This document shows positions 9,675 to 64,000 of a stretch of DNA of 64,000 bases, one piece after another. The position numbers and the translations under genes were made by a program. The notes beneath the pieces are model-generated. The model was not told the DNA's origin. It saw nothing but the letters and a program-made list of their open reading frames with translations, and did no database searches. Location: the NCBI GenBank assembly GCA_036675025.1, contig JAKFFN010000113.1, positions 5,337 to 69,336 of the forward strand. The letters run 5' to 3'. This DNA is from Candidatus Sumerlaeales bacterium. GTDB lineage: Bacteria; Sumerlaeota; Sumerlaeia; Sumerlaeales; Sumerlaeaceae. Each line of letters starts with the position of its first letter. Position 1 is the stretch's first letter.

Positions 9675-11929
9675 AGACCGAAAGCGCTCAGCGCTTCACC
9701 GGTGGCAACTACCAACACTGGCGACTTCTCGGCCCCGGTAGAGGCCCACGCTATCTCCGGCATACTTCCATTCGCTTTGGCTTTTCCAATGATCTTTCCA
9801 GTCCCGGTATCTGCAACAATTACATCGCTATCGCGGACTCCTACCGCGACGTAGCCGCCACATGGCGATACAGCCATTGAATCAACGTGGCTTTTTTCCG
9901 GTGCTATTAATGTTTCCCACAGCCTGTTTCCATCGGATGAAAAGGCCGCCATTACTTCCATGGCAGTTTTACTACCTGCAGCCAGGATCCTGACGGGTTT
10001 ACCTTTGGCTGAAGATACCCTAACCATGTTTGCGTAAAAGCCAGGGTCGATGTCTCTTTCCCTTTCACCGGTACTGTTGAAGATGTGAACGTCGCCCAGT
10101 GCGGAAGTCGACAGCACCTCTAACTGGCCGTCACCTTCAATATCGCCGATGCAACAATGCCAGTGGTTTCCAAGCTCCTCGTTTTTCCAAAGAAGCTGCC
10201 CGTCAGGAGCTACAGCATAGAGACCCGTATGGCCATTAAAGCCGATGACGACCTCATCCTTTCCGTCTCCATCCAGATCGCCTGCAGCGGCGTCATTCAC
10301 CCCGATCTTCTGTGGGAAGTTCCACAATGCTTCTCCATTTATGGTATCGGCAAATACGTCTGAGCGCCAGTGTATGAAGGTTACTATTTCACGCTCGGCC
10401 GTTTTATCCAACTGTGCAAGTCTGACTGAACCCCCCAAACCTTCAATTGTAAATTCGCGGACGATATTACCATTAATATCGATGTCAGCGCATTTCCCTC
10501 GGTGGCCGGAGGCTACTATCACCTTCCGCTCTTCATCATAAGCCAGACCGTTCCACCGTCCGTTAAGACGCCACAGGGTTTTCATTAGAGGGTGAGCGTC
10601 GGATGTTTCAGTAGTTTGTTCCGCTGCCGCCGATGACTGTGGTTTTTCCTTAGGCTGTGCGACAAGTTTTTCGTCGCTAAGAAGAGTCTCTATCTGGCTC
10701 GTCAAAGTATCCTTAAACCTGGGACCTACTCCTTCATGGAAAGCCTGGATTGTTCCGTCTTTACCAATGACTAAAGTAGTAGGGATTGCACGTATACCAT
10801 ACGTTTTTCCAACACCGCCATCTTTATCCAGGGCTACCTTCAGCGCAAGCTTTTCCTTAATCAGGAACTTCTCGATCTCTTCTTCGCCTTCGCGCAAATT
10901 GACCGCGTAAAATTCGACCGGTTGATCATGAAATTGCTTAGCAATCTGCTCGACAAGCGGCATGCCGCGGCGACATGGCCCGCACCATGTGGCCCAGAAA
11001 TCGAAAACAATAACTTTCCCGGCGAGTGTGGCATTATCAATATTGCCACCGTCGAGAAGGGGCATGTTAAATTGCGGAGCCGGTCGTCCGAGGTGCGACG
11101 CTATGTGTATGGATGGAGTTGCCTTCTTTCCTGATGTGCCGTGTGCTGCGGTTGCGGAGTTCCTGGCCTGCAGAGTCCAATCAAATGTGGAATCAGGTAT
11201 ATCCACGTCAAATTGCCAGTCACGAAACTCTACCGAAAGTGTAGTGGTGACATCGGTCACAGCCGGCTTGCCATGCTTCTTAATTTCATCTGCCGGCAAT
11301 ATCTCGGCTTTAACCATCAGCGGCGGATGAGTATCAGTAAACCACGCATCCCAGTGAAACTGTTTCTGTTCAAAATGCAACCGATGGCAGGATTGATCAT
11401 TCCACTGCTCCGTGCCTCCGTAGGTTCCAGTTGTTACGCCGTCCATGAGGTTGTCATAGGGCATGCTGCCAAACAGGCCCGGAGAGCAAAGAATCATGCT
11501 GCTGTCGATGACTGTTCGAACCTCGAAATTAAGAGCGATTTCCTGAATCGTAGCAGGCGCCGGAGTAGTCGTAACTTCGTCCAGTGATGATTCAGACAAA
11601 GTAAGAATCTTTCCATCGCTCACAATAGTGGATCCCCTAAGGCCCTCTTTATGGATTATTGCCAATTTATTAGGGCGCTCAACGGCGATATCAAATCGGC
11701 TGTCCAATTGGTGCTTCTGTCCACCAGACGCCATTAGTATGGATGATACGGCTTTTACTGAAATCGACCTGGCCGATTTGAGACCTTCGGAATATTGCCG
11801 AACAATTTCAGAGGCCCGTGGCTCAATGGATGGTGAACTGTCTGCAGTTACCTGAGTAGCCGCGAAAACTGGAATGCTGACTGAAAACGCGGTTAATGTT
11901 GCACACCTGAGGCCGCGGCGTAGAGTCAT
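9671..11929 (-). CDS. Secreted multidomain protein: LolA-like N-domain, TlpA/ResA-type thioredoxin and C-terminal β-propeller (FG-GAP/PQQ-like)
   Basis: A signal peptide is followed by the redoxin core FDFWATWCGPCRRGMP and then propeller repeats (DLDGDGKDEVVIG; DIEGDGQLEVL). It overlaps the VOC stop by 4 nt. Confidence 0.7.
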   Translation of the reverse strand: MTLRRGLRCATLTAFSVSIPVFAATQVTADSSPSIEPRASEIVRQYSEGLKSARSISVKAVSSILMASGGQKHQLDSRFDIAVERPNKLAIIHKEGLRGSTIVSDGKILTLSESSLDEVTTTPAPATIQEIALNFEVRTVIDSSMILCSPGLFGSMPYDNLMDGVTTGTYGGTEQWNDQSCHRLHFEQKQFHWDAWFTDTHPPLMVKAEILPADEIKKHGKPAVTDVTTTLSVEFRDWQFDVDIPDSTFDWTLQARNSATAAHGTSGKKATPSIHIASHLGRPAPQFNMPLLDGGNIDNATLAGKVIVFDFWATWCGPCRRGMPLVEQIAKQFHDQPVEFYAVNLREGEEEIEKFLIKEKLALKVALDKDGGVGKTYGIRAIPTTLVIGKDGTIQAFHEGVGPRFKDTLTSQIETLLSDEKLVAQPKEKPQSSAAAEQTTETSDAHPLMKTLWRLNGRWNGLAYDEERKVIVASGHRGKCADIDINGNIVREFTIEGLGGSVRLAQLDKTAEREIVTFIHWRSDVFADTINGEALWNFPQKIGVNDAAAGDLDGDGKDEVVIGFNGHTGLYAVAPDGQLLWKNEELGNHWHCCIGDIEGDGQLEVLSTSALGDVHIFNSTGERERDIDPGFYANMVRVSSAKGKPVRILAAGSKTAMEVMAAFSSDGNRLWETLIAPEKSHVDSMAVSPCGGYVAVGVRDSDVIVADTGTGKIIGKAKANGSMPEIAWASTGAEKSPVLVVATGEALSAFGL

Positions 11930-18822: not shown

Positions 18823-21800
18823 ATGCTTAAAAATCTCCTGGGTAAGGTCTTCGGAAACAAGCAGGCCCGCGATATGAGACGAATTCGTCCCATCATAGAC
18901 GAGATCAACTCCTATTTCGAGGAATACCAGGGTCTTTCAGAGGAAGACCTCCGTGGTAAAACAGCCGAGTTCAAAAACCGTCTCACCGAAGGTGAGACTC
19001 TTGATGATCTTCTCCCCGAAGCCTTTGCTGTTATTAAAGAAACCTGCCGCCGGCATAAAGGTAAAACCTGGCCGGCTGCCGGTGTAGATATTACCTGGGA
19101 CATGGTTCCGTACGACGTGCAGATGGCGGGTGGCATAGCCCTGCATGAAGGTCGAATTGCCGAGATGGCAACCGGTGAAGGTAAAACCCTCGTAGCCGTT
19201 GCTCCGCTTTACCTCAATGCACTGGCAGGCCGCGGAACTCACCTGGTTACAGTTAACGATTATCTTGCCCGTCGCGATAGTGAGTGGATGGGCCCGATCT
19301 TCGAGTACCTTGGCCTCACTATCGGTTGTCTTGATTCTACCGAGCCGAACACTCTTGAACGTCGCGAGATGTACGAGCGCGACATCACTTACGGCACCAA
19401 CCACGAGTATGGCTTCGACTATCTTCGCGATAACATGGTGACAAGTCCGGACCAGGTAGTACAGCAGCGCGGTCACTTCTACGCCATCGTCGACGAAGTT
19501 GATAACATCCTGATCGACGAAGCCCGTACGCCGCTGATCATCAGTGGTCCTGTTGATCGCAGCACACACCGCTATGATGAAATTAAACCCGTAGTGTTCG
19601 ACCTGGTTAAGAAGCAGAATGAACTAACCAGTCGCTACATGACGGAAGTGGAAGAAGCGACCAAACGTGGGCCGTTGACCCGTGAAGAAGGCGTAAAATT
19701 GCTGCAGGTGCAGCGCGGACTTCCCAAGCAAAAACGATTGCTTAAGTTGAAGGCCGAGCCTGGCGTGCAGGGGCTCATTGAAAAAGTTGAACTGGAGTTC
19801 ATGGCTGAGAAGAAACTCCATGAACTGGATGAAGGCCTGTATTATACGGTGGATGAAAAAACCCACCAGATAGACCTCACTGAAAGAGGCCGAAACGAAC
19901 TTTCACCTTCAAATCCGAAACTGTGGGAATTGCCGGATATTGTTGAAGAGATTGCTGCAATTGAAGCCGGCGATTTTGAAATTATATACCTGAATGACGG
20001 CACAGAAGTGCTGCTGAACGGCACTGTCGCCCAGCGAAAGGGTATGAAGACTGCCGACGGCGGATACGAAATCCATCGTCATGATGGTATCCAGCGCATT
20101 GCTGCAGCCGATGTTGCCAAGGTTGTCTCGGGCGCAGACATTGATAAACCCGGACGTGAGCGATTCAAAGATGTAATTCGCACGGAAAACGGTGTACAGA
20201 CAGAGAAGCTTCATAACATCTCGCAGATGCTGAAGGCGTACAGCCTTTATGAGCGCGATGTTGAGTACGTGGTGCAGGAAAACAAGGTCATCATAGTTGA
20301 CGAGTTTACTGGCCGCCTTATGAATGGTCGCCGCTGGAGCGATGGTCTCCATCAGGCCGTAGAGGCAAAGGAAGGTGTGGAGATTGAAATCGAAACTCAG
20401 ACCCTGGCCACTGTAACCCTTCAGAATTTCTTCCGCCTCTATAAGAAGCTTTCCGGTATGACTGGTACCGCCGAAACCGAAGCCGGTGAGTTTGCCCATA
20501 CCTACGACATTGACGTGATGGTGGTTCCCACCAATCGCCGCATCAAACGGACTGATAACAACGATATTGTTTATAAAACGAAACGTGAAAAGTATAAAGC
20601 CGTAATTGATGAGATTGTCGCTTGCCATGAGAGGCAGCTGCCGGTTCTCGTCGGTACTGTAAGCGTCGAAGTGAGTGAGTTGCTGAGCCGCTATCTGAAA
20701 GCTCGCCGTATCCCGCACAATGTACTAAACGCCAAAGCACACCAGCGTGAAGCTGAGATCGTAATGGGCGCTGGACAGCCAGGCGCTGTTACCATTGCCA
20801 CGAACATGGCAGGTCGTGGTACCGACATTAAGCTGCACCCTGATGTTATCATACGCGATGACAACGGCGAAGGCGTGGATGGTGGTCTCCAGATTATCGG
20901 AACGGAACGCCATGAAAGCCGTCGTATTGACCGTCAGCTGCGCGGTCGTGCAGGCCGCCAGGGCGATCCCGGTTCATCGAAATTCTTTATCTCTCTCGAA
21001 GACGATCTGATGCGTCTGTTCGGCAGCGACCGCATTGTTCGCATTATGGATCGTCTTGGCCTTGAAGAGGGCGAAGACATTACGCACCCGCTGGTTACCC
21101 GTGCCATCGAAAGCGCACAGAAGAAGGTTGAAGCCCGTAACTTTGAGATCCGCAAACGCACGCTTGATTACGATAACGTAATGAACAAGCAGCGCGAAGC
21201 TATCTATAAGCTGCGCCGTTCGATTCTCCTGGGTGAAGATGTTCGTACGTTGATGCTGGATATCCACCTGCAAGCCATTGATAACCTGCTGACAGAGTTC
21301 ATGCCGGAGAGCACGCGGGAAGCCTGGGATGCAGAAGGATTCCTGGATCATCTGCAGCGCCATATCCCGTACGCAAACTTCAAGGAGCTCCAGGACCAGG
21401 TTGCCGGTGGCGACCGCGAATCCATACTGGATCTTGTTTCTGAGAAGCTGGAAGAAGCATACAATGCCAAGTCTGAGCAATTGGGTGAAGACCTGCTGGT
21501 ACGCCTGGCTCGTTACGTGGTGCTTCGCCGTATCGATGACAACTGGCGCGATCACCTTCTGGCTGTTGATGATTTACGTGAGAGCATTGGTTGGCGCGGT
21601 TATGCGCAGCTTGATCCGCTGGTTGAGTACCAGAAGGAAGCTTCCATTATGTTCGAGGAGCTCATGGGGAACATGCATAAGGAAGTTATGGAGCACTTCT
21701 TCCTTACACAGCCCGTGATGCAGGTGCAGGAGCCAGAGCATCAGATTGGGCCGATCCAGGCGCGTCAGGCTACTCTTGAAGAAGCGCTGCCTGAAGTGGC

Positions 21801-21966
21801 CGCTGAGGGCCAGGCCATTGATGAAATGGACGGTACTATCGGCCTTCCCCATGACAAGCAGGAGCCGGTACGCCGCGAACAAAAAGTTGGCCGCAATGAT
21901 CCATGCCCTTGTGGCAGCGGAAAGAAATATAAGAAATGCTGCGGGGCGACAGCCGACGTAGAGTAA
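18823..21966 (+). CDS. secA: Preprotein translocase ATPase SecA
   Basis: It is full length at 1047 aa. It has a Walker A (MATGEGKT), the DEAD-like DEVD motif and the C-terminal zinc finger [14 protein letters not shown]. Confidence 0.95.
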
Positions 21967-25463: not shown

Positions 25464-28400
25464 CTAGTCGATCGTGAAGCTGCTTACGCTGACGGGGAGC
25501 GTTGCGGCTGCGCTTGAGACGTCAGGGGTCCATTCCAGCGAGAGTGGATTTTGGGAATTGGCATCCCACGCGCGGCTGCTGGCACTAGTTATATGCTTCA
25601 AGATGAGGGAATCGGCTCCCGTCGCATTGGCCGAACGTTCCACGCAAACGAAGAAGGTTTTCGTATTCGTGGCGGCTATCGACGTGGTAGCTGTCGCGGG
25701 AAGAAGTAACTGCAATTGCCCCAGCCAGTCAAGGTTCAGCAGTGTGGTACGCGCTACGATTGTGTCACTAGCCTGTTCGAACGAGCCTGAGGCATCGGTG
25801 TCGTGCCAAACCGAAATTGCAGAGACTAGGTAGTTTGCGCGGTTCGTGGACAACCTGTTACCCAACGAATCTGAAACGCCCAAATGAAAGCTGGACAGAT
25901 ATTCCAACGAATCGGTGGCGGACCCGTTATGAGTCGCGACAATCTTGAGCAGACTTGTGGTGGTGCCGGCGGCCAAACCCGCCGGAGCGACGCTAGTTGT
26001 CGCCAGCTTGAACTGCCCGCCGATATTAGGGAGCACCGAGACGTTATTCGATGAAGAGTTCGCCGCCGCGAGGTCTGCTTTGCTGTCGCCGTTAAAGTCA
26101 CCCACAGCGACGGACCAGGGAACCGTCCCCACGGAGAAGTTCGTCGCTGCGCCGAAGCTACCCGCGCCGTTGCCCAAAAGCACCGAGACGTTGTTCGAAT
26201 TCGCATTTACAGCGGCAAGGTCGACTTTGCCGTCGCCGTTAAAGTCACCCACCACAACGGACCGGGGGCTCGTCCCTGCGGAGAAGTTCGTCGCCGCGCC
26301 GAAGCCGCCCGCGCCGTTGCCCAAAAGCACCGAGACGTTGTTCGAATTCGCATTCACAGCGGCCAGGTCGGCTTTACCGTCGCCGTTAAAGTCACCCACC
26401 GCCACGGAATTGGGGCTGCTTCCGACGCTATAGTTCGTGGGGGGCCCGAAGCCGTCCGCGCCGTTGCCCAAAAGCACCGCAACGTTATTGGAGCTATTTT
26501 TCACCGTTGCGAGGTCGACTTTGCCGTCGTCGTTAAAGTCACCCACCGCGACGGACCAGGGGTTCGTCCCCACGAAGAAGTTAGTCGCCGCGCCGAAGCT
26601 GCCAGTGCCATTGCCTAAAAGCACCGAGACGTTGTCCGAATTCGCATTCACAGCCGCGAGGTCTGCTTTGCCGTCGCCGTTAAAGTCACCAACCGCAACG
26701 GAATTGGGGCTGCTTCCGACGCTATAGTTCGTGGAGGGCCCGAAGCCGCCCGCGCCGTTGCCCAAAAGCACCGAGACGTTGTTCGAATTCGCATTCGCAG
26801 CGGCGAGGTCCACTTTGCCGTCGGCGTTAAAGTCACCCACCGCGACGGAGCGAGGGCTCGTCCCCACGGAGAAGTTCATCGCAGTGCCGAGCGTAGCGCT
26901 GCGGTGGATTTGGTTGTTCAACAGCACCGATACGTTGTTTATGTTAAAGTTTGCAGCTACCAGATCCACCGCGCCGTCGGCGTTCAGGTCGCCAACAGCA
27001 ACGCCAAGGGGGGTCGTGCCCACACCCTGGCTGAGTGCTGCCTGAAAGGTGCCGTTGCCGTTACCGAGGAGGAATGACAGATTCGCACTCCCGGCGTTAG
27101 CTGTCACGAGATCGTCTTTGCCATCGGCATTCAAATCCGCAACGATCACGCGGTAAGGATTTGTTCCAGCGGGGTAACTGGTCGCCAAACCGAAAGTCCC
27201 GAAACCGCTACCGAGCAAAACCGACACGCTGTTCGATCCCTCGTTCGCTGTGGCAATGTCCACTTTGCCATCTCCGTTGAAGTCTCCAAGCGATGCCTGC
27301 CTGGGGTTTGTTCCGGTGGCATAAGTCAAAGCAGGGTTAAAAATGCCCTCGCCGATTCCCAGGTAGATGCCGACATTGTTTGATCCCTGATTCGCGACGA
27401 CGAGATCCTGCTTGCCGTCGCCGTTGAGGTCACCCGCAGCGACCGTATTGGGCGAGATGCCCGTATCGTAGTTGACTGGAGACGCAAAGGATCCGCTTCC
27501 ATCGCCTATCAGTACGGACATGGAGGAAACTCCGTTGGCCACTGCAAGGTCGGGCTTTCCATCGGAATTGAAGTCGCTTACAGCAAGGAACTGGGCGCCA
27601 GCGCCCGAGCTGAAGGAAGCGGCCGTTGCGAACCCGCCAGTTCCATTGCCGATGAGAACTGAGACGTTATTCGAGGTCATGTTTGCTGTCGCGAGGTCGG
27701 TTTTCCCATCACGGTTAAAGTCGCCGGAAACGATGGCGAACGGCCCTGTCCCGACCGAGAAGTTGGTACCCGGGCCGAAGGTTCCGTCGCCAGCGCCCAT
27801 GCGCACGGCGACGTTGTTTGCACCGTAATTGGCGACTGCGAGATCGCGTTTGCCGTCGCCGTTAAAATCGCCGAAGGTGACTGAGGAAGGGTTCGTTCCA
27901 GCGCCAACGGAAGTTGCAGCGCTAAACGTCGCGTCTGTCGGAGTGAAGGTTTGCAAGAGCACCGAGACCTGGTTTGTATAATTCGCCGTAACGAGGTCGG
28001 CCTTGCCGTCGCCGTTGAAGTCGCCCACCGCCACGGAATAGGAGAAGGTCCCGGCGCTAAAAGTCGTGCCGGATCCAAAGCTGCCAGCTCCGTTGCCCAG
28101 AAGTAGTGAGACAATATTGCCTGAAGAGAAGCTAACCGTGGCGAGGTCGGCCTTGCCGTCGCCGTTGAAGTCGCCCACCGCCACGGAAGTGGGGCTGCTT
28201 CCGACGCTAAAGTTCGTGGCGGATCCAAAGCTGCCGGCGCCGTTTCCCATGAGCACCGAGACGTTGCTGGACCAGTAGTTGGCCGTGGCGAGGTCTGCCT
28301 TGCCGTCGCCGTTGAAATCGCCCACCGCCACCGAAAACGGGGCGGTCCCAACGCTTAAGTTCGTGGCGGAGCCAAAGGCGCCGGCACCGTTGCCCAAGAG

Positions 28401-28991
28401 TACCGATACGGTATCCGAGCCATTATTGGCCGCGGCGAGGTCAGCCTTGCCGTCGTCGTTGAAGTCGCCCACCGCCACGGAATAGGGGTTGCTTCCGACG
28501 CTAAAGTTCGTGGGGGAGCCAAAGCTGCCGGCGCCGTTACCCAGCAGCACCGAGACATTACTAGAGCCATTGTTTGCAGTGGCGAGGTCGGGCTTACCGT
28601 CTCCGTTAAAGTCGCCCACCGCCACGGAATAGGGGTTGCTTCCGACGCTAAAGTTCGTGGCGGACCCGAAGCCGCCCGCGCCATTGCCCAGAAGCACCGA
28701 GACGTTATTTGAGTTAATGTTAGCCGTGGCGAGGTCGGCCTTCCCGTCGCCGTTGAAGTCACCTGCCGCCACGGAGCGCGGGGTGCTTCCGGCCGGAAAG
28801 TGTGTCGCCGCAGCAAAATTGACGCTGGCCGCCCTACATGAACATGAAACTGCCAAAATCCCGATAATTGTCAAAAGGGTGCTGAGCCTGCCACGTGAGG
28901 GTAGAATTGGATCAACAACAAACCGAACTGGGTACTTATCCTTCATTATCCAATTCTCCTGTGTATAAATGGAGGCAAGATCATCGGACAA
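25464..28991 (-). CDS. Secreted FG-GAP/VCBS-repeat protein (1175 aa)
   Basis: It has a signal peptide. More than 18 copies of a 49-aa unit (VAVGDFNGDGKADLA..AN..SNNVSVLLGNGAGSFG.ATNFSVG..P.S) occur. The C-terminal region is non-repeat. Confidence 0.85.
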   Translation of the reverse strand: MSDDLASIYTQENWIMKDKYPVRFVVDPILPSRGRLSTLLTIIGILAVSCSCRAASVNFAAATHFPAGSTPRSVAAGDFNGDGKADLATANINSNNVSVLLGNGAGGFGSATNFSVGSNPYSVAVGDFNGDGKPDLATANNGSSNVSVLLGNGAGSFGSPTNFSVGSNPYSVAVGDFNDDGKADLAAANNGSDTVSVLLGNGAGAFGSATNLSVGTAPFSVAVGDFNGDGKADLATANYWSSNVSVLMGNGAGSFGSATNFSVGSSPTSVAVGDFNGDGKADLATVSFSSGNIVSLLLGNGAGSFGSGTTFSAGTFSYSVAVGDFNGDGKADLVTANYTNQVSVLLQTFTPTDATFSAATSVGAGTNPSSVTFGDFNGDGKRDLAVANYGANNVAVRMGAGDGTFGPGTNFSVGTGPFAIVSGDFNRDGKTDLATANMTSNNVSVLIGNGTGGFATAASFSSGAGAQFLAVSDFNSDGKPDLAVANGVSSMSVLIGDGSGSFASPVNYDTGISPNTVAAGDLNGDGKQDLVVANQGSNNVGIYLGIGEGIFNPALTYATGTNPRQASLGDFNGDGKVDIATANEGSNSVSVLLGSGFGTFGLATSYPAGTNPYRVIVADLNADGKDDLVTANAGSANLSFLLGNGNGTFQAALSQGVGTTPLGVAVGDLNADGAVDLVAANFNINNVSVLLNNQIHRSATLGTAMNFSVGTSPRSVAVGDFNADGKVDLAAANANSNNVSVLLGNGAGGFGPSTNYSVGSSPNSVAVGDFNGDGKADLAAVNANSDNVSVLLGNGTGSFGAATNFFVGTNPWSVAVGDFNDDGKVDLATVKNSSNNVAVLLGNGADGFGPPTNYSVGSSPNSVAVGDFNGDGKADLAAVNANSNNVSVLLGNGAGGFGAATNFSAGTSPRSVVVGDFNGDGKVDLAAVNANSNNVSVLLGNGAGSFGAATNFSVGTVPWSVAVGDFNGDSKADLAAANSSSNNVSVLPNIGGQFKLATTSVAPAGLAAGTTTSLLKIVATHNGSATDSLEYLSSFHLGVSDSLGNRLSTNRANYLVSAISVWHDTDASGSFEQASDTIVARTTLLNLDWLGQLQLLLPATATTSIAATNTKTFFVCVERSANATGADSLILKHITSASSRAWDANSQNPLSLEWTPDVSSAAATLPVSVSSFTID
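25880..28800 (-). repeat. Intragenic tandem array of 147-bp (occasionally 156-bp) near-identical repeats
   Basis: I measured the periodicity from recurrences of the ...AGGTCGACTTTGCCGTCGCCGTTAAAGTCACCCACCGC... block at 26218, 26365, 26512, 26659 and 26806 (Δ=147). Confidence 0.8.
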
Positions 28992-33507: not shown

Positions 33508-36015
33508 TCAATCGGTACTCATGTCCTCTTCAGCCATGATTTCAAGCTGAGACACCATCCGTTTGATCCTGTCGGCGTAGCTTTCGCTCGAAACGTGAGC
33601 TGTTGCACTCGCCATTCGACTTGCCCATAGGGGGAAAGCCAGTGGCGTAAACCTTGTCACACGGATAAGGCGAAGCTGTGTCTCCTGCAGGCGTCTCAGC
33701 GCCTCTCCCAGACGAACTACCTCCATTTGCCGTTCCATCACTTCGCGCCGTGCCTGGTCAAGCAGCAGGTTTTCCGGATCGTACTTGTTAAAAACATCAA
33801 AAAGCAGGCTGGTAGAAGATTGCACCTGCCTGGCAACTTTAGGTGCACCCGGGTAGCCTGTAAATATAAGTCCCGCCACCCGCGCCACCTCGCGAAACTG
33901 TCGTTTTGCCAGTTCGGTCGCATTAATTGACGCAAACAGATCATCCAGCAGCCGGTCCGGCGAAAGGATCTGGCGCCACGCCTTCTCATCCATTTTCAAA
34001 TCGATAGGCTCATGGCTCAAGAGTTCAAACCCATAGTCGTTCATGGTCACGCCGATTGTGCGCGGGTTCAACTGGGAGACTCTCCAGGCAACCAGGCCGC
34101 CAAGCCCTTCATGCACGAAGTGCCCTTCGAAGGGGTACAGGAAAACGTGGTAGCCCTCCCGGCTGCGTATGAACTCAATAAGCAGTTCATCCTTTGCCGG
34201 TATTACTGACCAGTGTGCCTGGATATCCAGCACCGGTTTTACCTTTTCCATCTCAGGCCCCTCGAAGTTCCCATGCCGTGCATCATCCAGTTTATCACGC
34301 ACTGCCTGGCCTAACTGGCTGGTAATGGGCATGCGGCTTCCGCCCCAGGTCGGCAGCGCGCCGCTCTGCTTCTCTGCGAACTTTACCGTCGCCGTCATTT
34401 CCTTAAGGCGCACCAGTTCAAGCAGCCGGCCCGCAAATACGAAGCAGTCGCCGTTCTTCAGTTTCGCCAGGAAGTTCTCTTCCACTGTGCCCAGGATGCC
34501 GCCGCCCTGCAGCTTTAAGGCGATGTTCATATCTGATGTAATTGTGCCGATATTAAGGCGATGAAGCTTCGCCATCTTATCACTGGAAATTGCCCAGCGG
34601 TTATCGTACTTATGAACCTTCTTGAACTGGTCGTAAGCTCGCAGCGCCTGCCCGCCATGGCTCAGGAAATCAATTACCCAATCCCATTCCTGCCGAGTCA
34701 GTTTTCGGTAAGACCATGCCTTACGCACTTCATCAAAAAGCTGCTCTTCGTCAAAACCTTCGCCGGCGGCGAGGGTCACTACGTGCTGAGTCAGCACGTC
34801 AATCGGGCGATCCGGAGGAATCCGCAGTTCTATCCGGCCCGCCTCGGCGGCGTCGCGGGTTGCAGAATACTCCACCAGTTCAAACGCGTTAGTGGGCACG
34901 CAGAGCACCCGGCTCACGCCCCCCGGCTGGTGACCACTGCGCCCCGCGCGCTGAAGCAGGCGCGCCACGCCCTTAGGGCTGCCGATCTGGATCACCTGGT
35001 CCACAGTGGGAAAATCTACACCAAGATCCAGGCTCGACGTACACACTACGCACTTGATCACGCCTGTGCGCAGGCCGTCTTCCACAGTCTCCCTGATCTC
35101 CCGGTCCAGTGAACCGTGGTGCAGAGCCATTCTGTCCTTCCAGCGCGGTCCAGCTTTCATGATCGATTGATACCAGAGCTCTGCCTGGGATCGCGTGTTA
35201 GTAAAAACCAGGGTCGTCTTTGCCCCGGAAATAGCTTTAACAACATCAGGAAGCAACCGCAGCCCGATGTGACCAGACCACGGAAACCGTTCGATGTTCT
35301 CCGGCAGCATGGTCACGATTTCGGTGATCTTGTCGTTCTCTGCGCGAATCAAAACTTTGTCACGCCTGCCTGTAGCCGTAAGTACATCCAAGGCCATGTC
35401 CAGGTTCCCAAGTGTTGCGCTAAGGCCCCAGATCCGCATGTCCGGCAGCCACGTCCTCAACCGCGCCAGGGCCAACTCCGTCTGGGTGCCCCGCTTATTG
35501 CCCAGGAGTTCATGCCACTCGTCCACAACAACGGCTTTCACAGTACCCAGCAGCTCACGCGTGTTGTCGTAAGTCAGCAGCACCGAAAGGCTTTCGGGCG
35601 TCGTCACCAGTGCCGTAGGAAGCTTCGTTTTCTGACGCGCCTTCCGTGATGCCGACGTATCACCTGTTCGTTTTTCCAGCGTCCAGGGCATGCCAAGGCC
35701 TTCGATTGGTGCACGCAGCGCCGAAAGCGTATCGTTGGCAAGAGCGCGTAGGGGAGTGATCCACAGCACTTGGGTCGGCGCTGGATCTTTCAGGTTCCAT
35801 TGCATCTTATCGGGATTGTCAGCCAGCCACTGCGATACCGGACCCAACCACACAGAGTATGTCTTTCCCATGCCTGTGGGCGCGTTTACCAGTCCATCCG
35901 CGCCTTCGGCAAAAGCAGCCCATGCTTCCTGTTGAAACTCGAACGGCTGCCAGCGCTTTCGCCTGAACCATTTCGCCAGTTCCGGGTGCAGGGTATCTGT
36001 TGTGGCCGTTGTCAT
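33508..36015 (-). CDS. Ligase-associated DEXH-box helicase (Lhr-core type)
   Basis: It has a Walker A (APTGMGKT), DEWH, SATLGN and a helicase C domain plus Lhr-specific C-terminal domains. Its start overlaps the ligase stop. Confidence 0.85.
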   Translation of the reverse strand: MTTATTDTLHPELAKWFRRKRWQPFEFQQEAWAAFAEGADGLVNAPTGMGKTYSVWLGPVSQWLADNPDKMQWNLKDPAPTQVLWITPLRALANDTLSALRAPIEGLGMPWTLEKRTGDTSASRKARQKTKLPTALVTTPESLSVLLTYDNTRELLGTVKAVVVDEWHELLGNKRGTQTELALARLRTWLPDMRIWGLSATLGNLDMALDVLTATGRRDKVLIRAENDKITEIVTMLPENIERFPWSGHIGLRLLPDVVKAISGAKTTLVFTNTRSQAELWYQSIMKAGPRWKDRMALHHGSLDREIRETVEDGLRTGVIKCVVCTSSLDLGVDFPTVDQVIQIGSPKGVARLLQRAGRSGHQPGGVSRVLCVPTNAFELVEYSATRDAAEAGRIELRIPPDRPIDVLTQHVVTLAAGEGFDEEQLFDEVRKAWSYRKLTRQEWDWVIDFLSHGGQALRAYDQFKKVHKYDNRWAISSDKMAKLHRLNIGTITSDMNIALKLQGGGILGTVEENFLAKLKNGDCFVFAGRLLELVRLKEMTATVKFAEKQSGALPTWGGSRMPITSQLGQAVRDKLDDARHGNFEGPEMEKVKPVLDIQAHWSVIPAKDELLIEFIRSREGYHVFLYPFEGHFVHEGLGGLVAWRVSQLNPRTIGVTMNDYGFELLSHEPIDLKMDEKAWRQILSPDRLLDDLFASINATELAKRQFREVARVAGLIFTGYPGAPKVARQVQSSTSLLFDVFNKYDPENLLLDQARREVMERQMEVVRLGEALRRLQETQLRLIRVTRFTPLAFPLWASRMASATAHVSSESYADRIKRMVSQLEIMAEEDMSTD

Positions 36016-37610
36016 TTATTGTGGAGCTCCAACAGGTCGTAAACAAGCTCCAGCGTATCGGCCTGGTCGGCCGGTTTATCTTTCCGCCACCGCTGAATGC
36101 GTGGGAATCTTACTGCAATGCCCGACTTGTTACGTGTGCTTGGTTGAAGACCCTCAAAGGCCAGTTCAAAAACCAGCTCCGGCTTTACCATGCGCACAGG
36201 TCCGAACTTTTCCAGCGTATTCTTTCGAACCCAGGCATCCACTTCTTTAATCTCGGAATCGGTAAGTCCGCTGTAAGCCTTTGCCACAGTAATGAGTTCA
36301 TCACCGCGCCAAACCCCAAATGTGTAATCGGTAAACAAACCAGCCCGCCGTCCACTGCCCGGCTGTGCGTACGTCAGCACGGCGTCCATCGTGTATGGAT
36401 CTACCTTCCACTTCCACCAGTCACCCTTTACGCGACCGGCGCGGTACGGAGAATCCAGCTTCTTCAGCATCAGACCTTCAGTACGATTTTCACGCGATAG
36501 CTGCCGGTGGTTCGCCAGTTCCTGCCAGCTTTCGGCGTTTACCAGCGGCGAAACATAAAGAGAGCTGTCTGGTTCCTGGTCACGCAAAAGTGACTCCAAT
36601 GCCCGGCGACGCTCCGCCAAGGGCCATTCGCGTATATCTTCGCCCTCCAACTCCATTATGTCATACGCCATAAATGCAGTCGGCGTGTCTTTTAAAATTT
36701 TAGGGGTCACAGCCTTTCGTGTAATTCGCGATTGCAGGTCCTGAAACGGTGCCGGCCGATCCACATCCCACGCCAGAATCTCACCATCCAATACGGTTCC
36801 ATCAGGTAGCGACGCTGCCGCGTCACGGATTTCCGGGAACCGGTCGGTCAGCAAATCTTCACCCCTCGACCATATGATCACCTGTCCCTGTCGACAAATT
36901 ACCTGGCTGCGGATCCCGTCCCATTTCCACTCCGCCTGGTAATGCGCCGCACTTTCCTGCTCCAGGAACTCCGTCGGCAGGGGATTAGCCAGGAAAAACG
37001 GAAATGGCTTCGCGGGATTTTCTTCCATTATCGCCGGTTCTGCCAGTCCCAGCATAGAAGTCGCAGTCGGTTCCCAGTTGCCCATCAGGCGGTGCGCCAT
37101 CACCGCAGGCTCCGCATCGTGCAGTTGGGCTAGCGCCTTTACCACAAGGGTTTTAGAAACACCTACGCGAAAAGCCCCTGTGATCAACTTGTTCCAGACG
37201 AATCGCTGATTGCAGTCCATGCGTTGCCATAACTCAATAACTGCCTTGCGTCGTTCCTCCTCAGGCATGGCTCTCAGTTTCAGCAGGTAGTCGTGCACAA
37301 GGCGATGGAGTGGAATTTCCATGGGAACTGGATTATCTGGGAGCAGCAGCGCGATTGTCTCCGCAAGGTCGCCCACATTGTGATAGCATTCGTCAACCAG
37401 CCAGTCCGGCAGTCCGGCAGCCTCGCCAACCCAACGCCGCAGCAGCGGGCTATTTACTGCGCGCTGCACTTTGGCACCCATTAAAAAATAAACAGCCCAC
37501 GCCGCATCTTCCGGCGGCGCATCTGCGAAATACTTTCGCAAGGCTTCGAGTTTTTCATTGGTCCGATTTGTGGCATCCAGGTCCATGTACAGGCGGGTAA
37601 ACTGCTGCAT
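36012..37610 (-). CDS. ATP-dependent DNA ligase (ligase-associated damage-response family)
   Basis: It has the KxDG adenylation motif (EWKWDGIRSQ) and nucleotidyltransferase and OB domains. It overlaps both neighbours. Confidence 0.9.
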   Translation of the reverse strand: MQQFTRLYMDLDATNRTNEKLEALRKYFADAPPEDAAWAVYFLMGAKVQRAVNSPLLRRWVGEAAGLPDWLVDECYHNVGDLAETIALLLPDNPVPMEIPLHRLVHDYLLKLRAMPEEERRKAVIELWQRMDCNQRFVWNKLITGAFRVGVSKTLVVKALAQLHDAEPAVMAHRLMGNWEPTATSMLGLAEPAIMEENPAKPFPFFLANPLPTEFLEQESAAHYQAEWKWDGIRSQVICRQGQVIIWSRGEDLLTDRFPEIRDAAASLPDGTVLDGEILAWDVDRPAPFQDLQSRITRKAVTPKILKDTPTAFMAYDIMELEGEDIREWPLAERRRALESLLRDQEPDSSLYVSPLVNAESWQELANHRQLSRENRTEGLMLKKLDSPYRAGRVKGDWWKWKVDPYTMDAVLTYAQPGSGRRAGLFTDYTFGVWRGDELITVAKAYSGLTDSEIKEVDAWVRKNTLEKFGPVRMVKPELVFELAFEGLQPSTRNKSGIAVRFPRIQRWRKDKPADQADTLELVYDLLELHNK

Positions 37611-57651: not shown

Positions 57652-60048
57652 ATGACCATTTTCCGCAGGACCATGACCTATTTGTGCGCTGCATCTGTAA
57701 CGCTGACGGCCAGCAGTCTTTTAGCCGATCAGTTGCCCGGACAACCCGTATATACGACCCTGGGCGAGCAGGAGAATGCAGCCACACAGACGATGCAACC
57801 GACAGCCATACCTCCTGATGCCCGCGCGGTATCGCTGGTAGACGGACCAGGCGTATGGCGGGAAGACGAGCCGCCGACCTCGGGCGGATTGTGGGGAAAA
57901 AAGATAGCCATTGAAGCGGGCCATGGCCTCACCTGGCGCGGAAGCTTCTGGGGCTGGCAACGGGAGGACTGGTTTCCGGGGCGCCATGTGCACTCCAGCC
58001 AGGAAGACTACAACACCGCACGCATGGTGAACCGGTGGCTGCTGCCGTATCTGCGAAATGCCGGCGCTGATGTTTACCCGGACCGGTGCCCCGACGAACA
58101 GACGAACGAGGTGCTATTTGATGCTCCCGTGCAGATGCCTGCCACGCTGACTGGCAGTTGGCAGGCAACGCCAAATTCCAGTGCCCGCGGAGGCACTTAC
58201 TTTTACTCTTTGTCTACGGCTTCGTCTGCCCCAACGGCAGTGGCCCAGATCCGTGCAGACATTCCGGAAGATGGCTACTACGGCGTTAACGTCTGGTATC
58301 CCAATGGGTGGGCTCCGGCCACCGATGCTCCCGTTACAGTTGTAGATGCAGCCGGAAACCGGCACCCGTTTCGGGTAGATCAGTCGCGAAATACGGGCGA
58401 GTGGGTGTGGCTCGATCGGTTTTACTTTGAGGCTGGTGACGATGTTCTTGTCATGGAAATCTCAAACCAGACCTCTGTGGCAAACAAGCAGGTTCTACTT
58501 GATGGGGTTCGCCTGGGTGGAGGTATGGGCAGCGAGGATTTTGGTGGTGGACCGAGCGGTGTGCCGCGCTGGCAAGAGACGGCTACCTGCTGGACTAAAT
58601 ACAACGGCGCGCCGAGCAGCGTGTGGCAGGCAAACCTGGGCCAGACGCACGATTATTCTGTGCGGTTTAACTACGCAATCTGGCAGGACGCTGATCTGCT
58701 GCTGCGCCTCCACACAAATGGCAGCACTTTCCACACGGGTTTTGGAAGCGAAGCTTACCAATACGCCCCAGACAGTGCGACCCTTACTCGGCTGGGGTAC
58801 ATTTATCCGAAAATCATCCAGTCGGTACGCAACCATTATCGCCCAACATGGACAAACCGCGGCGTTAAGGCCAACGCAGTGAGTGGCTGGTCTTTTCCTT
58901 ATGTGCTGGTGGAGCTGGGCTTTCATGACTGGCTGACGGACGCACAGGCGATGATGGACGCGGATTTCAGGCGAATGGCCATGCGTGGTTATTATGAAGG
59001 GACTATCGACTTTTTCACGAACAAGACCGGAGCCTACCTGCCTGAACCGCCGGTGAACCTTGCCGTGTACAATACAGGCGACGGGATGGTGCGAGCGGAG
59101 TGGACCAGTTCGACAGTGGGAACGGCGCCGGAAAGCTATCGCGTGTATTATAGCACGCACCCTCACTGCTATAAGGATTACGTGGAGACCACCGCCCCGC
59201 TTACCTCTGTAGAAGTTGGTCTATTGGCGCCCGGGCAGGTTTATTACTTCCAGTTCCGGTCGCGAAACGACGGTGGACTTAGCCTGCCATCGGAAACGCT
59301 GGTTGCGATGACGTCTGCAAACCCTGATGCACGCAGGACGCTGCTGGTGAATGGCTTTGACCGGTTCGACTGGGATATTGATGAGACGGATAATCAGCGA
59401 AATTATTGCAAGGAGCATGCGGTGGCGCTGGCTGATGCTGCGACTTCCATTGGCATGGCGATAGTAATCGACTCGGCTTCCAACGAAGCTGTCTCCAGCG
59501 GTCGGCGTTCGCTTACTGGTTATGCATTGGTGAACTGGCAATTGGGCCAGGAGAGCGCAGCCGACGAAACGTTCAGCGCGGCAGAACAGGCTGCTGTCAG
59601 TACGTACAGGGAGCAGAGCGGGGTGCTGGTTGTTTCAGGCACCGATGTGGCATCTGACCTTGGCACAAGCGGCACGCTGGAAGATAAGGCTTTTCTGGAG
59701 GCGAACCTCGGAGTTCAATCGGCCGCTGGCAGGATCTTCGAACCGGAGGCATTGGAAGCGGATTCTGCCGGCGTGTTTGCGGGCTTGAACCTGACGATTG
59801 ACCAGTCGACAGGAACATACAACCTGCTTGGACTGGACGGCGTTAATGCCGGTGCGGCCAGCTCGACTTCTTATGTAGAGGGAGATGTTGCGGTGGCCGT
59901 GCAGTCCATCGCGCAACCCAGCCCGCTGTTCTTTTTCAGCTTCCCGCTTGAAACCATAGCCGGGGCAGAAAACAGGCGGGCGGTAATGGAGCGGATTCTT
60001 CCGTTCACACCGGACAAGGCGCGTGTGGGGGAGTGGTCTTTGTACTGA
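57652..60048 (+). CDS. Secreted protein with Amidase_3-like (N-acetylmuramoyl-L-alanine amidase-type) domain and fibronectin type III domain
   Basis: It has a signal peptide. IAIEAGHG resembles the Amidase_3 start. The FN3-like segment PPVNLAVYNTGDGMVRAEWTSS...YRVYYS is present. Confidence 0.55.
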   Translation: MTIFRRTMTYLCAASVTLTASSLLADQLPGQPVYTTLGEQENAATQTMQPTAIPPDARAVSLVDGPGVWREDEPPTSGGLWGKKIAIEAGHGLTWRGSFWGWQREDWFPGRHVHSSQEDYNTARMVNRWLLPYLRNAGADVYPDRCPDEQTNEVLFDAPVQMPATLTGSWQATPNSSARGGTYFYSLSTASSAPTAVAQIRADIPEDGYYGVNVWYPNGWAPATDAPVTVVDAAGNRHPFRVDQSRNTGEWVWLDRFYFEAGDDVLVMEISNQTSVANKQVLLDGVRLGGGMGSEDFGGGPSGVPRWQETATCWTKYNGAPSSVWQANLGQTHDYSVRFNYAIWQDADLLLRLHTNGSTFHTGFGSEAYQYAPDSATLTRLGYIYPKIIQSVRNHYRPTWTNRGVKANAVSGWSFPYVLVELGFHDWLTDAQAMMDADFRRMAMRGYYEGTIDFFTNKTGAYLPEPPVNLAVYNTGDGMVRAEWTSSTVGTAPESYRVYYSTHPHCYKDYVETTAPLTSVEVGLLAPGQVYYFQFRSRNDGGLSLPSETLVAMTSANPDARRTLLVNGFDRFDWDIDETDNQRNYCKEHAVALADAATSIGMAIVIDSASNEAVSSGRRSLTGYALVNWQLGQESAADETFSAAEQAAVSTYREQSGVLVVSGTDVASDLGTSGTLEDKAFLEANLGVQSAAGRIFEPEALEADSAGVFAGLNLTIDQSTGTYNLLGLDGVNAGAASSTSYVEGDVAVAVQSIAQPSPLFFFSFPLETIAGAENRRAVMERILPFTPDKARVGEWSLY

Positions 60049-61515: not shown

Positions 61516-61974
61516 ATGTTGTGCCCCTTCTGCGGACACCTCGAAAGCAAAGTGGTTAATTCGCGTCAGAATCCTCGCGGTGATGCAATCCGCCGCCGCC
61601 GCGAATGTCTTGAATGCTCCCATCGTTTTACCACTTTCGAAATGGTGGAGAAAACCCCTATTATCGTGGTGAAGCGCGACGGCAAACGGGAAGCCTACGA
61701 CCGTGAGAAAGTAACCAAGGGGCTGCTGCGGGCGTGTGAGAAGCGTCCGGTGACCATGGAGCAGGTTGAGCGCATAGTACAGACGGTGGAAAAATCGCTC
61801 TATAACAACATGGAAAAGGAAGTAAGCTCACTAAAGATAGGCGAGCTGGCGCTAAGCCAGTTGCGGTCGGTAGATGAAGTTGCCTATGTGCGTTTTGCCA
61901 GCGTTTACCGGCAGTTCCGCGATATCAGCGAGTTCAATCACGAGCTAAAGGTGCTGATGAAGAGCGATATGTAG
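61516..61974 (+). CDS. nrdR: Transcriptional repressor NrdR
   Basis: It has a zinc ribbon (CPFCGH...CLECSHRF) plus an ATP-cone and is 152 aa. Confidence 0.9.
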   Translation: MLCPFCGHLESKVVNSRQNPRGDAIRRRRECLECSHRFTTFEMVEKTPIIVVKRDGKREAYDREKVTKGLLRACEKRPVTMEQVERIVQTVEKSLYNNMEKEVSSLKIGELALSQLRSVDEVAYVRFASVYRQFRDISEFNHELKVLMKSDM

Positions 61975-62104
61975 CACATCCAACCGGGATGTGAATTATT
62001 GCTTGCTAACGCACTTTGGTGAGATTTCATTGCCTGTATTATTACGGTTGTAGCGCGTTCCGCTGTAAGCCGTGTTTGAGACCAGAGGGAAATCGACGAA
62101 GTTT

Positions 62105-63178
62105 ATGCCATCAATTAACTACGCGTTTAAAGAGATCACCTGCAAAATCGTGTATTACGGCCCCGGAGCCGGCGGCAAAACGACTAATTTGCATTACGTC
62201 CACGGTAACGTGCCCTCCAAACATCGCGGCGATTTGGTGTCGCTGGCAACGGAGCAGGACCGCACACTCTTTTTCGATTTTCTTCCGCTGGATATCGGCG
62301 ACGTAAAAGGTTTTAAAACAAAGTTCCAGCTCTACACGGTGCCCGGGCAGGTCTATTACAATGCTACCCGTAAGCTGGTGCTTCGGGGTGTGGATGGTAT
62401 TGTTTTTGTGGCAGACAGCCAGGCCAGCCGCTTCCAGGACAGCCTCGACAGTCTTCGAAACCTCGAAGAAAATCTTCGGGATTATGGCCTCGACCTTGAG
62501 ACAATTCCTTTTGTCATGCAGTACAACAAGCGCGATCTGCCCGATGCTCTCCCACTGGATCAGCTACAGGCGGCTCTCAATCCCGGCGGAAAGTATTCGG
62601 AGTATGAGGCCGTGGCCACTGAAGGTGATGGCTGCCGCGAATCTCTGCGCGATGTTGCCAGCCAGGTTCTGAAAAAGCTTAATTCCACCGCAAATATTGT
62701 TTCTGATGAACAGGTGGTAACCGAGCGATTGGGTGTGGCCGGTGGTACGGCTGCGGCAGGAAAGAGCGGCGCGTCAGCGCCGGTTAGCCATGCAGACCGG
62801 CGGGCGCCTCAAATCTCGATTGACCAGGATACGGTGTTTTCGTGGAACGGGATCAAGCTGGGTTCGGGGGATGTCCGCTTGGAAAGCCGTAAGAACGATC
62901 GCGAAGAAGTTGAGTACAACCTCTCCACGAAGCATAAGGTTCTCGGCTTGAGCAAAAGTCTTAGTCGCATGATGCGTTATGTGGGCGAAGACAAGCAGAC
63001 TGTGGATGGCATCGAACGCACTTACCACGTGCTACGCGATGCGACTTCAAGCTCTGACGGTAAACGCGTGGCGGCGTTTGTGGAAAAGGGCCACGGCATG
63101 GATCGTATCTACCTGGTCTACCCGGGCATTGCCGGAGAAATGAAAGCCGGGCCGGAAGGCGAAGCTAACCCTTTCTAA
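62105..63178 (+). CDS. mglA: MglA-family Ras-like GTPase with ~160-aa C-terminal extension
   Basis: Residues 1-195 are near-identical in key blocks to Myxococcus MglA (KIVYYGPGAGGKTTNL; DRTLFFDFLP; LYTVPGQVYYNATRKLVLRGVDGIVFVADSQ; QYNKRDLPDA). Residues ~196-357 have no recognisable domain. Confidence 0.8.
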   Translation: MPSINYAFKEITCKIVYYGPGAGGKTTNLHYVHGNVPSKHRGDLVSLATEQDRTLFFDFLPLDIGDVKGFKTKFQLYTVPGQVYYNATRKLVLRGVDGIVFVADSQASRFQDSLDSLRNLEENLRDYGLDLETIPFVMQYNKRDLPDALPLDQLQAALNPGGKYSEYEAVATEGDGCRESLRDVASQVLKKLNSTANIVSDEQVVTERLGVAGGTAAAGKSGASAPVSHADRRAPQISIDQDTVFSWNGIKLGSGDVRLESRKNDREEVEYNLSTKHKVLGLSKSLSRMMRYVGEDKQTVDGIERTYHVLRDATSSSDGKRVAAFVEKGHGMDRIYLVYPGIAGEMKAGPEGEANPF

Positions 63179-63224: not shown

Positions 63225-64000
63225 CTAGTGGATTTCCGTCAGGGCTTCATTAGACAGTTTTACGGCCATCTTAAGTGTCTCGGTGGGGTTTGCGTCTCGT
63301 GCTACGATTTCATGCATGGCCCAGCGCACATGCTGCTTCATCACCTGGGCATTGGGCAGTAACTGGAGCGGTCTGCTGTCGTCGATAGCTTCTCGTACAA
63401 CCTTATAAACGCGCTGCTCGCCGAAGTAAGGCATCGGCTGGTCGAGCAATGGATTATTCCACACCTCTCGCAGCGGCGGCGGGCTGCCTACCCGGCGGAA
63501 GTAGGCGAGGGCAAATTCTTCTGAAGCCAGGAACCTGGCCAGTTCCACGGCCCCTTGCTTATTACTGGCGTTATAGGGCATGGCCAGGCAAGAGCCACCC
63601 AGCCCAGTAGAAGGGTATTGCGGCGCTCTTTTGGGGAACAAAGCCACTCGCCACTTACCAGCTTGCTCAGGCACTTTTTGTTCCAGGATTTTTGCGAACC
63701 ATGGCCCCGCAATATATCCCGCAATACGCTCCGATTTTATCAGTTCCGTGGGATCGCCTTGCGTGACACGGTTCCATTCTTTTGCTGTGTTATTTTCTAT
63801 CAGATGGTTCAGGTAGCTGAATGCAGCAATGGATTCCGGCGAATCAAAAACGGCCTCACTTAAGTCCTCGCTGAACAATTTGCCTCCCGATGCTGGAAGA
63901 AACGCCATGCGGATTGGAACCGGGTCTTCCGGATCCAGATAAAGAAGGTTCTGAGATGAGCCACGCAAAGTGCGGGGGGTGAAGGTAGCCTCACCCAGGC
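63225..64000 (-). CDS. ABC transporter extracellular solute-binding protein (family 1, sugar-type; C-terminal part only, start beyond the window end)
   Basis: The open frame runs to the window edge. The C-terminal SBP_bac_1-like sequence has the WxxxxYN-type blocks. Confidence 0.6.
   Translation of the reverse strand, partial: LGEATFTPRTLRGSSQNLLYLDPEDPVPIRMAFLPASGGKLFSEDLSEAVFDSPESIAAFSYLNHLIENNTAKEWNRVTQGDPTELIKSERIAGYIAGPWFAKILEQKVPEQAGKWRVALFPKRAPQYPSTGLGGSCLAMPYNASNKQGAVELARFLASEEFALAYFRRVGSPPPLREVWNNPLLDQPMPYFGEQRVYKVVREAIDDSRPLQLLPNAQVMKQHVRWAMHEIVARDANPTETLKMAVKLSNEALTEIH

Follow-up and report, generated by a model that had tools for sequence, protein, structure and literature searches.

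The gene considered here lies near the end of a 64,000-nucleotide stretch of Candidatus Sumerlaeales bacterium (GCA_036675025.1, contig JAKFFN010000113.1, positions 5,337–69,336), analysed as a whole and hereafter called the window; it encodes an MglA-family GTPase that carries a long C-terminal extension. An alternative in-frame GTG upstream, at 62072, would lengthen the protein by 11 residues. The homologues all begin MP(S/T)IN or MA(S/T)(I/L)N, and since these starts align with residue 1–2 of canonical MglA, the ATG at 62105 is taken as the start, with no N-terminal extension. Residues 1–193 match solved MglA structures (3t12, E = 6.5e-77; 6h17, E = 5e-69), and the Ras-like GTPase domain (G domain) is closest in fold to MglA. 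The G1 P-loop G19PGAGGKT26 and the G4 motif N141KRD144 fit the canonical GxxxxGK[ST] and [NT]KxD patterns. In the G3 motif T78VPGQ82 the catalytic Gln82 is kept, and Thr78 stands where the Ras superfamily has Asp, a hallmark of MglA described by Fremgen et al. (PMC3000849). The three motifs are invariant in 58/58 full-length homologues, which bears out the initial annotation of an N-terminal MglA of about 195 residues with TVPGQ and NKRD. The intrinsic Arg finger of switch I, R53 (codon 62261–62263), is also kept; Gln replaces it in 8 of the 32 members of the clade to which the window protein belongs (P0040, P0042–P0045, P0049, P0056, P0058) but not in any of 26 longer relatives. Its sequence places the protein in Group 1 of the MglA family in the sense of Wuichet and Sogaard-Andersen (PMC4316618), and we infer that the product is a functional, nucleotide-switching GTPase.

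The extension beyond the G domain is a conserved part of the protein. A protein identical to the window product is already on record (P0004), and dozens of homologues at 53–88% identity span 99–100% of the query length; a second set at 38–47% identity (377–424 aa) spans about 99% of it. The assemblies behind these sequences (NCBI, JGI, ENA and Logan) are independent of one another. In the alignment, a stretch of biased composition with many gaps comes after the G domain and gives way to a block of about 125 well-aligned residues. Between the window gene and its 83%-identical relatives, the nonsynonymous divergence of this block (pN) is 0.17 vs a synonymous divergence (pS) of 0.65–0.92, and pN in the G domain is 0.04–0.05; as pN lies far below pS, the frame of the block is translated and constrained by purifying selection. 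The 160-residue unassigned extension of the initial annotation is thus real and uncatalogued, although it is not a single unit: a linker of about 37 residues precedes a domain of about 125 residues. Neither Pfam nor NCBIfam matches residues ~196–357 at E ≤ 1 and, one chance match aside (see below), neither matches any of 40 C-terminal domains of the family; a profile search of the PDB gave no significant match. By these searches the terminal domain is an uncatalogued family, covered by no domain-family model. In one distant relative (GCA_964269675.1, L086 4660–5933) the MglA-barrel gene is called as two overlapping open reading frames (ORFs) of 306 and 135 aa, which may be due to a frameshift in the assembly or to a pseudogene.

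Modelled alone from a 40-sequence alignment, the terminal domain is predicted as a beta-barrel of eight consecutive antiparallel strands with zero helices, with a predicted local distance difference test score (pLDDT) of 90.5 and a predicted template modelling score (pTM) of 0.84. In the full-length AlphaFold2 model (58-sequence alignment) the block means of pLDDT from about residue 233 on are mostly 86–97, with one loop block at 70; pLDDT is below 50 at linker residues 197–208 and 210–229, with a low-confidence helix at 202–211, and the whole-protein pTM is 0.56. The predicted protein is therefore one of two well-defined domains on a flexible tether, modelled with a mutual orientation that is not confident. 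Conserved positions of the barrel are P235, Q241, W247, G249, G253, Y271, L273, G294, Y339, G344, P350 and G352, and all of these except L273 and G294 are nearly invariant. About 30% of the barrel sequence is charged, which fits a soluble rather than a membrane-embedded barrel; barrels of the family are neutral to basic (net charge −3 to +11, mostly positive).

The first domain to expect in a fusion with MglA would be the Roadblock/LC7 domain of MglB (PF03259), also in view of RagA/Gtr1-type GTPase-roadblock fusions. The initial annotation had doubted this identity, and rightly so: a roadblock is an alpha/beta sandwich, whereas the window domain is modelled as all-beta, and none of the 40 C-terminal domains matches PF03259 at E ≤ 1. 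The structural neighbours are instead small outer-membrane barrels (OmpW, PagL, OmpA) and lipocalin-, avidin- and YceI-like proteins, at 2–14% identity. Lipocalins and fatty-acid-binding proteins head the Foldseek list (best E = 0.028, TM-score 0.2–0.5), and de novo designed and outer-membrane barrels score equal to Cap15. The cyclic-dinucleotide-receptor barrel of Cap15 (7n34) and the lipocalin/avidin/YceI-like calycins have the same eight-stranded antiparallel meander, but no significant Foldseek or sequence match and no motifs in common with the window domain; judging from the models, the likeness is one of topology and fold class only. A likeness to DUF3427 of SauUSI (7clg, E = 0.33; one DUF3427 Pfam match, E = 0.13) was judged to be chance. 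The pattern common to residues ~290–347 of the C-terminal domain and 865–918 of 7clg_A is "...V.K......Y..Y.G.aG".

The distribution of the barrel is narrow. A HMMER profile of it, searched against 1.84 billion cluster representatives at E ≤ 1e-3, retrieved only 37 matches, 20 of which were inspected. Those of ~360–430 aa are complete MglA-barrel fusions, and most of the shorter ones begin within the MglA G domain or the linker, i.e., are contig-end fragments; P0151 (171 aa, E = 1.3e-4) is a barrel match showing no G-domain sequence, and two matches are unrelated repeat proteins. The 20 include no clear case of a barrel standing alone and none of a different architecture, and among the matches inspected the barrel is exclusive to the C-terminus of MglA. 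In contigs of one GTDB genome per species, all full-length matches are labelled Candidatus Sumerlaeota, Sumerlaeia or Sumerlaeaceae, with one labelled just "bacterium". Across 85 loci, the hidden Markov model (HMM) of the barrel has no match in those assigned to other phyla; the positives include the unlabelled L028, and the barrel-positive locus of P0040 bears the NCBI name "Hydrogenedentota". All barrel-positive loci whose taxon label is informative belong to Sumerlaeota, and this pattern by itself would place the window almost certainly in a Sumerlaeaceae-like lineage of Sumerlaeota (BRC1). In a quick neighbour-joining distance tree of G domains, built without support values, the barrel-bearing MglAs form a single clade, whose sisters are long-tailed MglAs of Zixibacteria/Ignavibacteria, of metagenome-assembled genomes (MAGs) labelled Planctomycetota, and of Fibrobacter. 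The window protein and those of L002–L010, which have short linkers and are uncoupled from MglB, are a nested subclade within the barrel clade.

Table 1. Features of the MglA-barrel gene and its flanks (positions in the window).
Feature	Position	Strand	Basis
Complete MglA-barrel fusion gene, 357 aa	62105..63178 (stop codon 63176-63178)	+	ATG start; ORF list, identical protein, >55 full-length homologues
Group-1 MglA G domain, residues 1-195	62105..62689	+	P-loop, R53, TVPGQ, NKRD
Linker-start motif ANIVSDEQVVTERLGV, residues 196-211	62690..62737	+	Alignment of 32 clade members
Gly/Ala/Ser-rich linker, predicted disordered, residues 212-232	62738..62800	+	pLDDT; length varies among homologues
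MglA-specific up-and-down beta-barrel (predicted, 8 strands), residues 233-357	62801..63175	+	
nrdR, 152 aa, upstream neighbour (context only)	61516..61974	+	Pfam Zn_ribbon_NrdR and ATP-cone
Terminator-like hairpin CACATCCAACCGGGATGTG directly after the nrdR stop codon	61975..61993	+	Consensus scan
ABC-type (ATP-binding cassette) solute-binding protein gene, convergent, runs off the window end	63225..64000	-	Pfam SBP_bac_1 / SBP_bac_8 on identical contig L001

The absence of an mglB neighbour and the presence of nrdR directly upstream, both reported by the initial annotation, hold on closer search: tblastn and jackhmmer-built profiles (E ≤ 10) find no roadblock/MglB homologue within the window, no PATAN or related protein is detected there, and the flanks of the close relatives L001–L011 contain no roadblock homologue. 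The gene order is MFS (major facilitator superfamily) transporter, nrdR, GTPase, convergent solute-binding gene, anti-sigma/ECF (extracytoplasmic function) sigma pair, amidase, argG, recX. As the solute-binding gene is convergent, the GTPase gene is the last of its strand block. The hairpin after nrdR is weak evidence for separate transcription of the GTPase gene, such sites being not enriched over shuffled sequences. The remaining 60 kb contain housekeeping and metabolic genes only, and no genes for pili, gliding or chemotaxis. The gene is likewise isolated in close relatives: in L002/L003 it lies beside CbiX and PfkB and nrdR is absent, and in L004/L005 the neighbour is BshC and nrdR is convergent. 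Since the neighbours differ among relatives, the adjacency to nrdR reflects residual synteny and not an operon; a functional link to nrdR is rejected, given the flipped orientation in L004/L005 and the missing gene in L002/L003.

Several other genes of the window deserve mention. The SecA protein (1047 aa, 18823–21966) matches the 290-position SecA_DEAD profile across residues 8–557, a span that points to an unusually long insertion around the preprotein-binding domain. Golvesin_C, Amidase_3 (N-acetylmuramoyl-L-alanine amidase) and fn3 domains occur together in a 798-aa protein that looks secreted (57652–60048). On the minus strand (33508–37610), the gene for an ATP-dependent DNA ligase (532 aa) is directly followed, with a 4-base overlap, by that for an Lhr-type large helicase (835 aa), and a 354-aa protein with no Pfam match is encoded upstream of the ligase; this gene set is probably a repair operon. 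The same strand encodes a 1175-aa protein made almost wholly of FG-GAP/VCBS-type repeats (25464–28991) and a 752-aa protein (9671–11929) in which DUF2092, thioredoxin-like and FG-GAP domains are fused.

More distant barrel-bearing relatives from other Sumerlaeota (380–460 aa) sit in a conserved gene cluster. It begins with a TPR (tetratricopeptide repeat) protein, a membrane protein whose C-terminus is roadblock-like, a Robl_LC7 protein of 116 aa and the MglA-barrel fusion, and continues with a Robl_LC7 protein of 160 aa whose C-terminal tail is acidic (MglB, confirmed by PF03259), a PatA_N/PATAN protein and often a response regulator (L079 3711–9132; also L047, L013–L016, L018, L028, L051, L055, L059, L071, L080, L087, L090). 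Hence, three to four roadblock-type proteins flank one GTPase. The long-tailed MglAs of Zixibacteria/Ignavibacteria show the core order Robl-MglA-MglB too, usually with a PATAN protein upstream. Coupling to MglB within four genes is thus found in the more distant barrel-bearing relatives and not in the window; at least one further lineage is uncoupled (P0145), and another is partly coupled, with an upstream Robl only (P0135). The most parsimonious reading is that coupling is ancestral and that the state of the window lineage is derived. For the MglA family as a whole, mglB was found within four genes in 390/449 members, 59/449 (~13%) being orphans (PMC4316618), so that coupling, although typical, does not strictly define membership. 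The orphan status claimed by the initial annotation accordingly stands for the window gene, which has no mglB beside it, but it is not a trait of the architecture, since most other Sumerlaeota fusions are flanked by Roadblock/LC7 genes. For the same reason, namely the co-occurrence of barrel and MglB in most lineages, the barrel is not a general replacement of MglB.

An MglB for the orphan clade was also sought: all 120 best MglB homologues, where traceable, adjoin MglA-barrel genes of the operon type. Only ~10 substitutions are specific to the G domain of the orphan clade; most of them are conservative, the switch regions have none, and no clade-specific changes were found at the MglB-binding switch surfaces. 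The unchanged switch regions argue for continued use of the usual surfaces for regulators and effectors, and these proteins presumably continue to depend on roadblock regulators encoded elsewhere in the genome.

The tail past residue 195 ranges from ~155 to ~265 aa among relatives and the barrel is constant at ~125 aa; hence, the length of the linker is highly variable. It is short in the uncoupled clade (~25–50 aa) vs roughly 60 to ~140 aa in other Sumerlaeota. In the uncoupled clade the linker opens with the motif NI[VI]SDE[EQ][VI]V.ERLG[VL] (A196–V211 in the window protein), which is absent from operon-type proteins; the latter carry an acidic DDEYEAMDE.EL-like motif in their longer linkers. 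The linker-start motif loosely resembles the conserved acidic C-terminal tail of Sumerlaeota MglB, DIERDVEDRLDDLF, with the spacing off by 3 residues.

In the sister lineages, the MglA homologues (313–480 aa) have long low-complexity C-terminal tails, and most of their genes show the Robl-MglA-MglB order. Tails of Zixibacteria/Ignavibacteria (L017, L020, L023, L025, L029, L031–L037, L042, L050) end in basic-aromatic peptides, e.g., KGFFLWRFLNKLLNR, RGFFLWRLLNKLLNR, GFSLWGWIKKLIGQ and RKFGLFSLFRKRKK, with a net charge of +1 to +9, mostly at least +4. Those from Planctomycetota-labelled MAGs (L068, L073) end in a hydrophobic, transmembrane-like helix (GWVVAILFLIIGFVLGAATEHFV), and those of Fibrobacter (L019, L054 and others) in the motif IELRPY(V/I)PKKK. 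Barrel and tail peptides are mutually exclusive and occupy the same C-terminal position. The basic-aromatic peptides and the transmembrane-like helix resemble membrane anchors, which we take from the membrane-targeting sequences of the MinD/FtsA type. The composition of these tails suggests that tethered MglAs are widespread in the sister phyla.

Compared with the Group-1 MglAs of M. xanthus and T. thermophilus (3t12/5ymx), the window protein has identical residue numbering and the same P-loop, Arg53, Thr78, Gln82 and NKRD elements, and most of its Sumerlaeota relatives likewise adjoin MglB. It differs in the added 37-aa linker and 125-aa C-terminal beta-barrel, in the lack of mglB within 64 kb, and in a P-loop reading GPGAGGKT rather than GPGL(C/S)GKT. 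Like the window protein, the long Group 2 MglAs of Fremgen et al. (here those of Fibrobacter, Zixibacteria/Ignavibacteria and Planctomycetota-labelled MAGs) join a G domain to a long low-complexity tail; however, their disordered tails end in a peptide, a transmembrane helix or IELRPY(V/I)PKKK, and never, by the HMM, in a barrel. SofG is also an MglA-family GTPase longer than the canonical form and uncoupled from mglB (PMC4316618), yet the window protein lacks an N-terminal extension, and its G domain is close to Group 1 and not that of a divergent paralogue; the barrel profile, moreover, retrieved no myxobacterial protein among the 1.84 billion representatives. Identity as a SofG-like paralogue is not supported, as the N-terminus aligns residue for residue with canonical MglA from position 1–2. 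Eukaryotic Ras, Rho and Rab proteins offer a functional analogy only, in that their G domain, too, leads through a flexible and variable linker to a targeting element at the terminus; in the window protein a CAAX box and a Cys motif are both absent, the terminal element is a predicted folded domain, and homology is not implied.

The initial annotation saw in the extended MglA a distinct architecture. This is correct for the barrel, which is new and uncatalogued, but not for extended MglAs at large, since C-terminally extended homologues were noted as a class in 2010 (PMC3000849). A literature search found no paper that treats MglA together with Sumerlaeota. What is found here is a well-known switch with a new domain architecture specific to one lineage, not a new kind of system.

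As for the role of the barrel, we favour that of a targeting or adaptor module linked to a functional Group-1 MglA, the most likely single reading, to which we give about an even chance. The barrel would keep the switch domain at a defined place in the cell or on a defined partner, e.g., the membrane or a polarity/motility scaffold, with a linker flexible enough for the G domain to contact regulators and effectors. The ancestral setting would have been a roadblock-rich operon with MglB and a PATAN protein; in the window subclade the gene would then have been transposed out of the operon, the linker shortened, and a new conserved linker motif gained. The barrel may thus be the Sumerlaeota version of a terminal targeting element, because it occupies the same position as the anchor-like tails of the sister lineages and is mutually exclusive with them; by analogy with these tails, a tethering role is favoured, and on this reading MglA would be a tethered switch throughout this group of phyla. 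Several points weigh against this. The window barrel has a net charge of 0, which counts, if weakly, against simple electrostatic binding to a membrane. The predicted fold is a generic one, and as its neighbours include the ligand-binding Cap15 and lipocalin barrels, the model is equally compatible with a sensor role. The membrane-targeting role of the sister tails is read from their composition and from general knowledge, and the relationships among the lineages come from a quick tree.

The linker and the uncoupled clade bear on a different, and in our view unlikely, possibility: that the extension is a built-in regulator, the linker motif and/or the barrel acting in cis in a GAP-, GEF- or GDI-like manner (as a GTPase-activating protein, guanine-nucleotide exchange factor or dissociation inhibitor) or by autoinhibition, and substituting for MglB in the uncoupled clade. 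The lack of neighbouring roadblock genes in the window clade speaks for it, as do the restriction of the NI[VI]SDE[EQ][VI]V.ERLG motif to this clade and its loose likeness to the MglB tail, and the replacement of R53 by Gln in this clade only. In addition, MglA of M. xanthus is reported to be regulated allosterically by the C-terminal helix of MglB (PMC6785124). However, most lineages have the barrel alongside both MglB and a second roadblock protein, so that the barrel did not evolve to replace MglB; nor does it have the roadblock fold. The likeness of linker and MglB tail, given its spacing mismatch, has no statistical support; with linker pLDDT and full-length pTM as low as given above, no confident docked state is predicted; and the switch surfaces of the G domain are the same in both clades.

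Slightly less probable still is a ligand sensor, in which a calycin- or Cap15-like pocket would bind a lipid or cyclic nucleotide and couple this signal to the localisation or activity of MglA. The place of lipocalins and fatty-acid-binding proteins at the top of the Foldseek list agrees with such a pocket, and the conserved Q241, W247, Y271 and Y339 could line it. Against this, every Foldseek E-value is at least 0.028 with low TM-scores, sequence identity to the neighbours is 2–14%, and the equal scores of designed and outer-membrane barrels point to a similarity of topology only.

A broader and unlikely proposal is that the MglAs of Sumerlaeota, Zixibacteria, Ignavibacteria, Fibrobacterota and some Planctomycetota-labelled MAGs form a large clade of permanently tethered switches, within which the window subclade has become self-regulating and autonomous of MglB. 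The common plan would be a G domain, a variable linker and a terminal anchor, the latter being a basic-aromatic peptide, a transmembrane helix or, uniquely, a folded beta-barrel. The window subclade would have left the roadblock operon, with its MglB-tail-like acidic linker motif acting in cis and the Arg finger lost in one branch. If true, bacteria would have their own counterpart of the eukaryotic design of a hypervariable region plus anchor.

A frameshift or assembly error joining a downstream ORF, or non-coding read-through, which the initial annotation had itself raised against the fusion, can be practically dismissed: the frameshift check found no support for it, more than 55 homologues (53–100% identity over 99–100% of the length) keep the extension in one ORF across the independent assemblies, pN is far below pS, a barrel fold is confidently predicted, no clear free-standing barrel protein was seen among the inspected matches from the 1.84 billion representatives, and the split ORFs of L086 point the opposite way.

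MglA is the paradigm of a bacterial Ras-like polarity switch and, to our knowledge, has generally been regarded as a free protein of one domain, positioned by its GAP and GEF alone. Uncultured host organisms limit the immediate impact of the present finding; nevertheless, the single clean architectural context of the barrel makes it tractable for structure determination and pull-downs. The MglB-uncoupled subclade is a natural experiment on an MglA with no adjacent GAP, to which the linker motif and the loss of the Arg finger add interest. Together, the phylum-wide, predicted folded tail of the Sumerlaeota proteins and the anchor-like tails of their sisters suggest that covalent tethering of the switch is common, and so far unstudied, outside Myxococcota.

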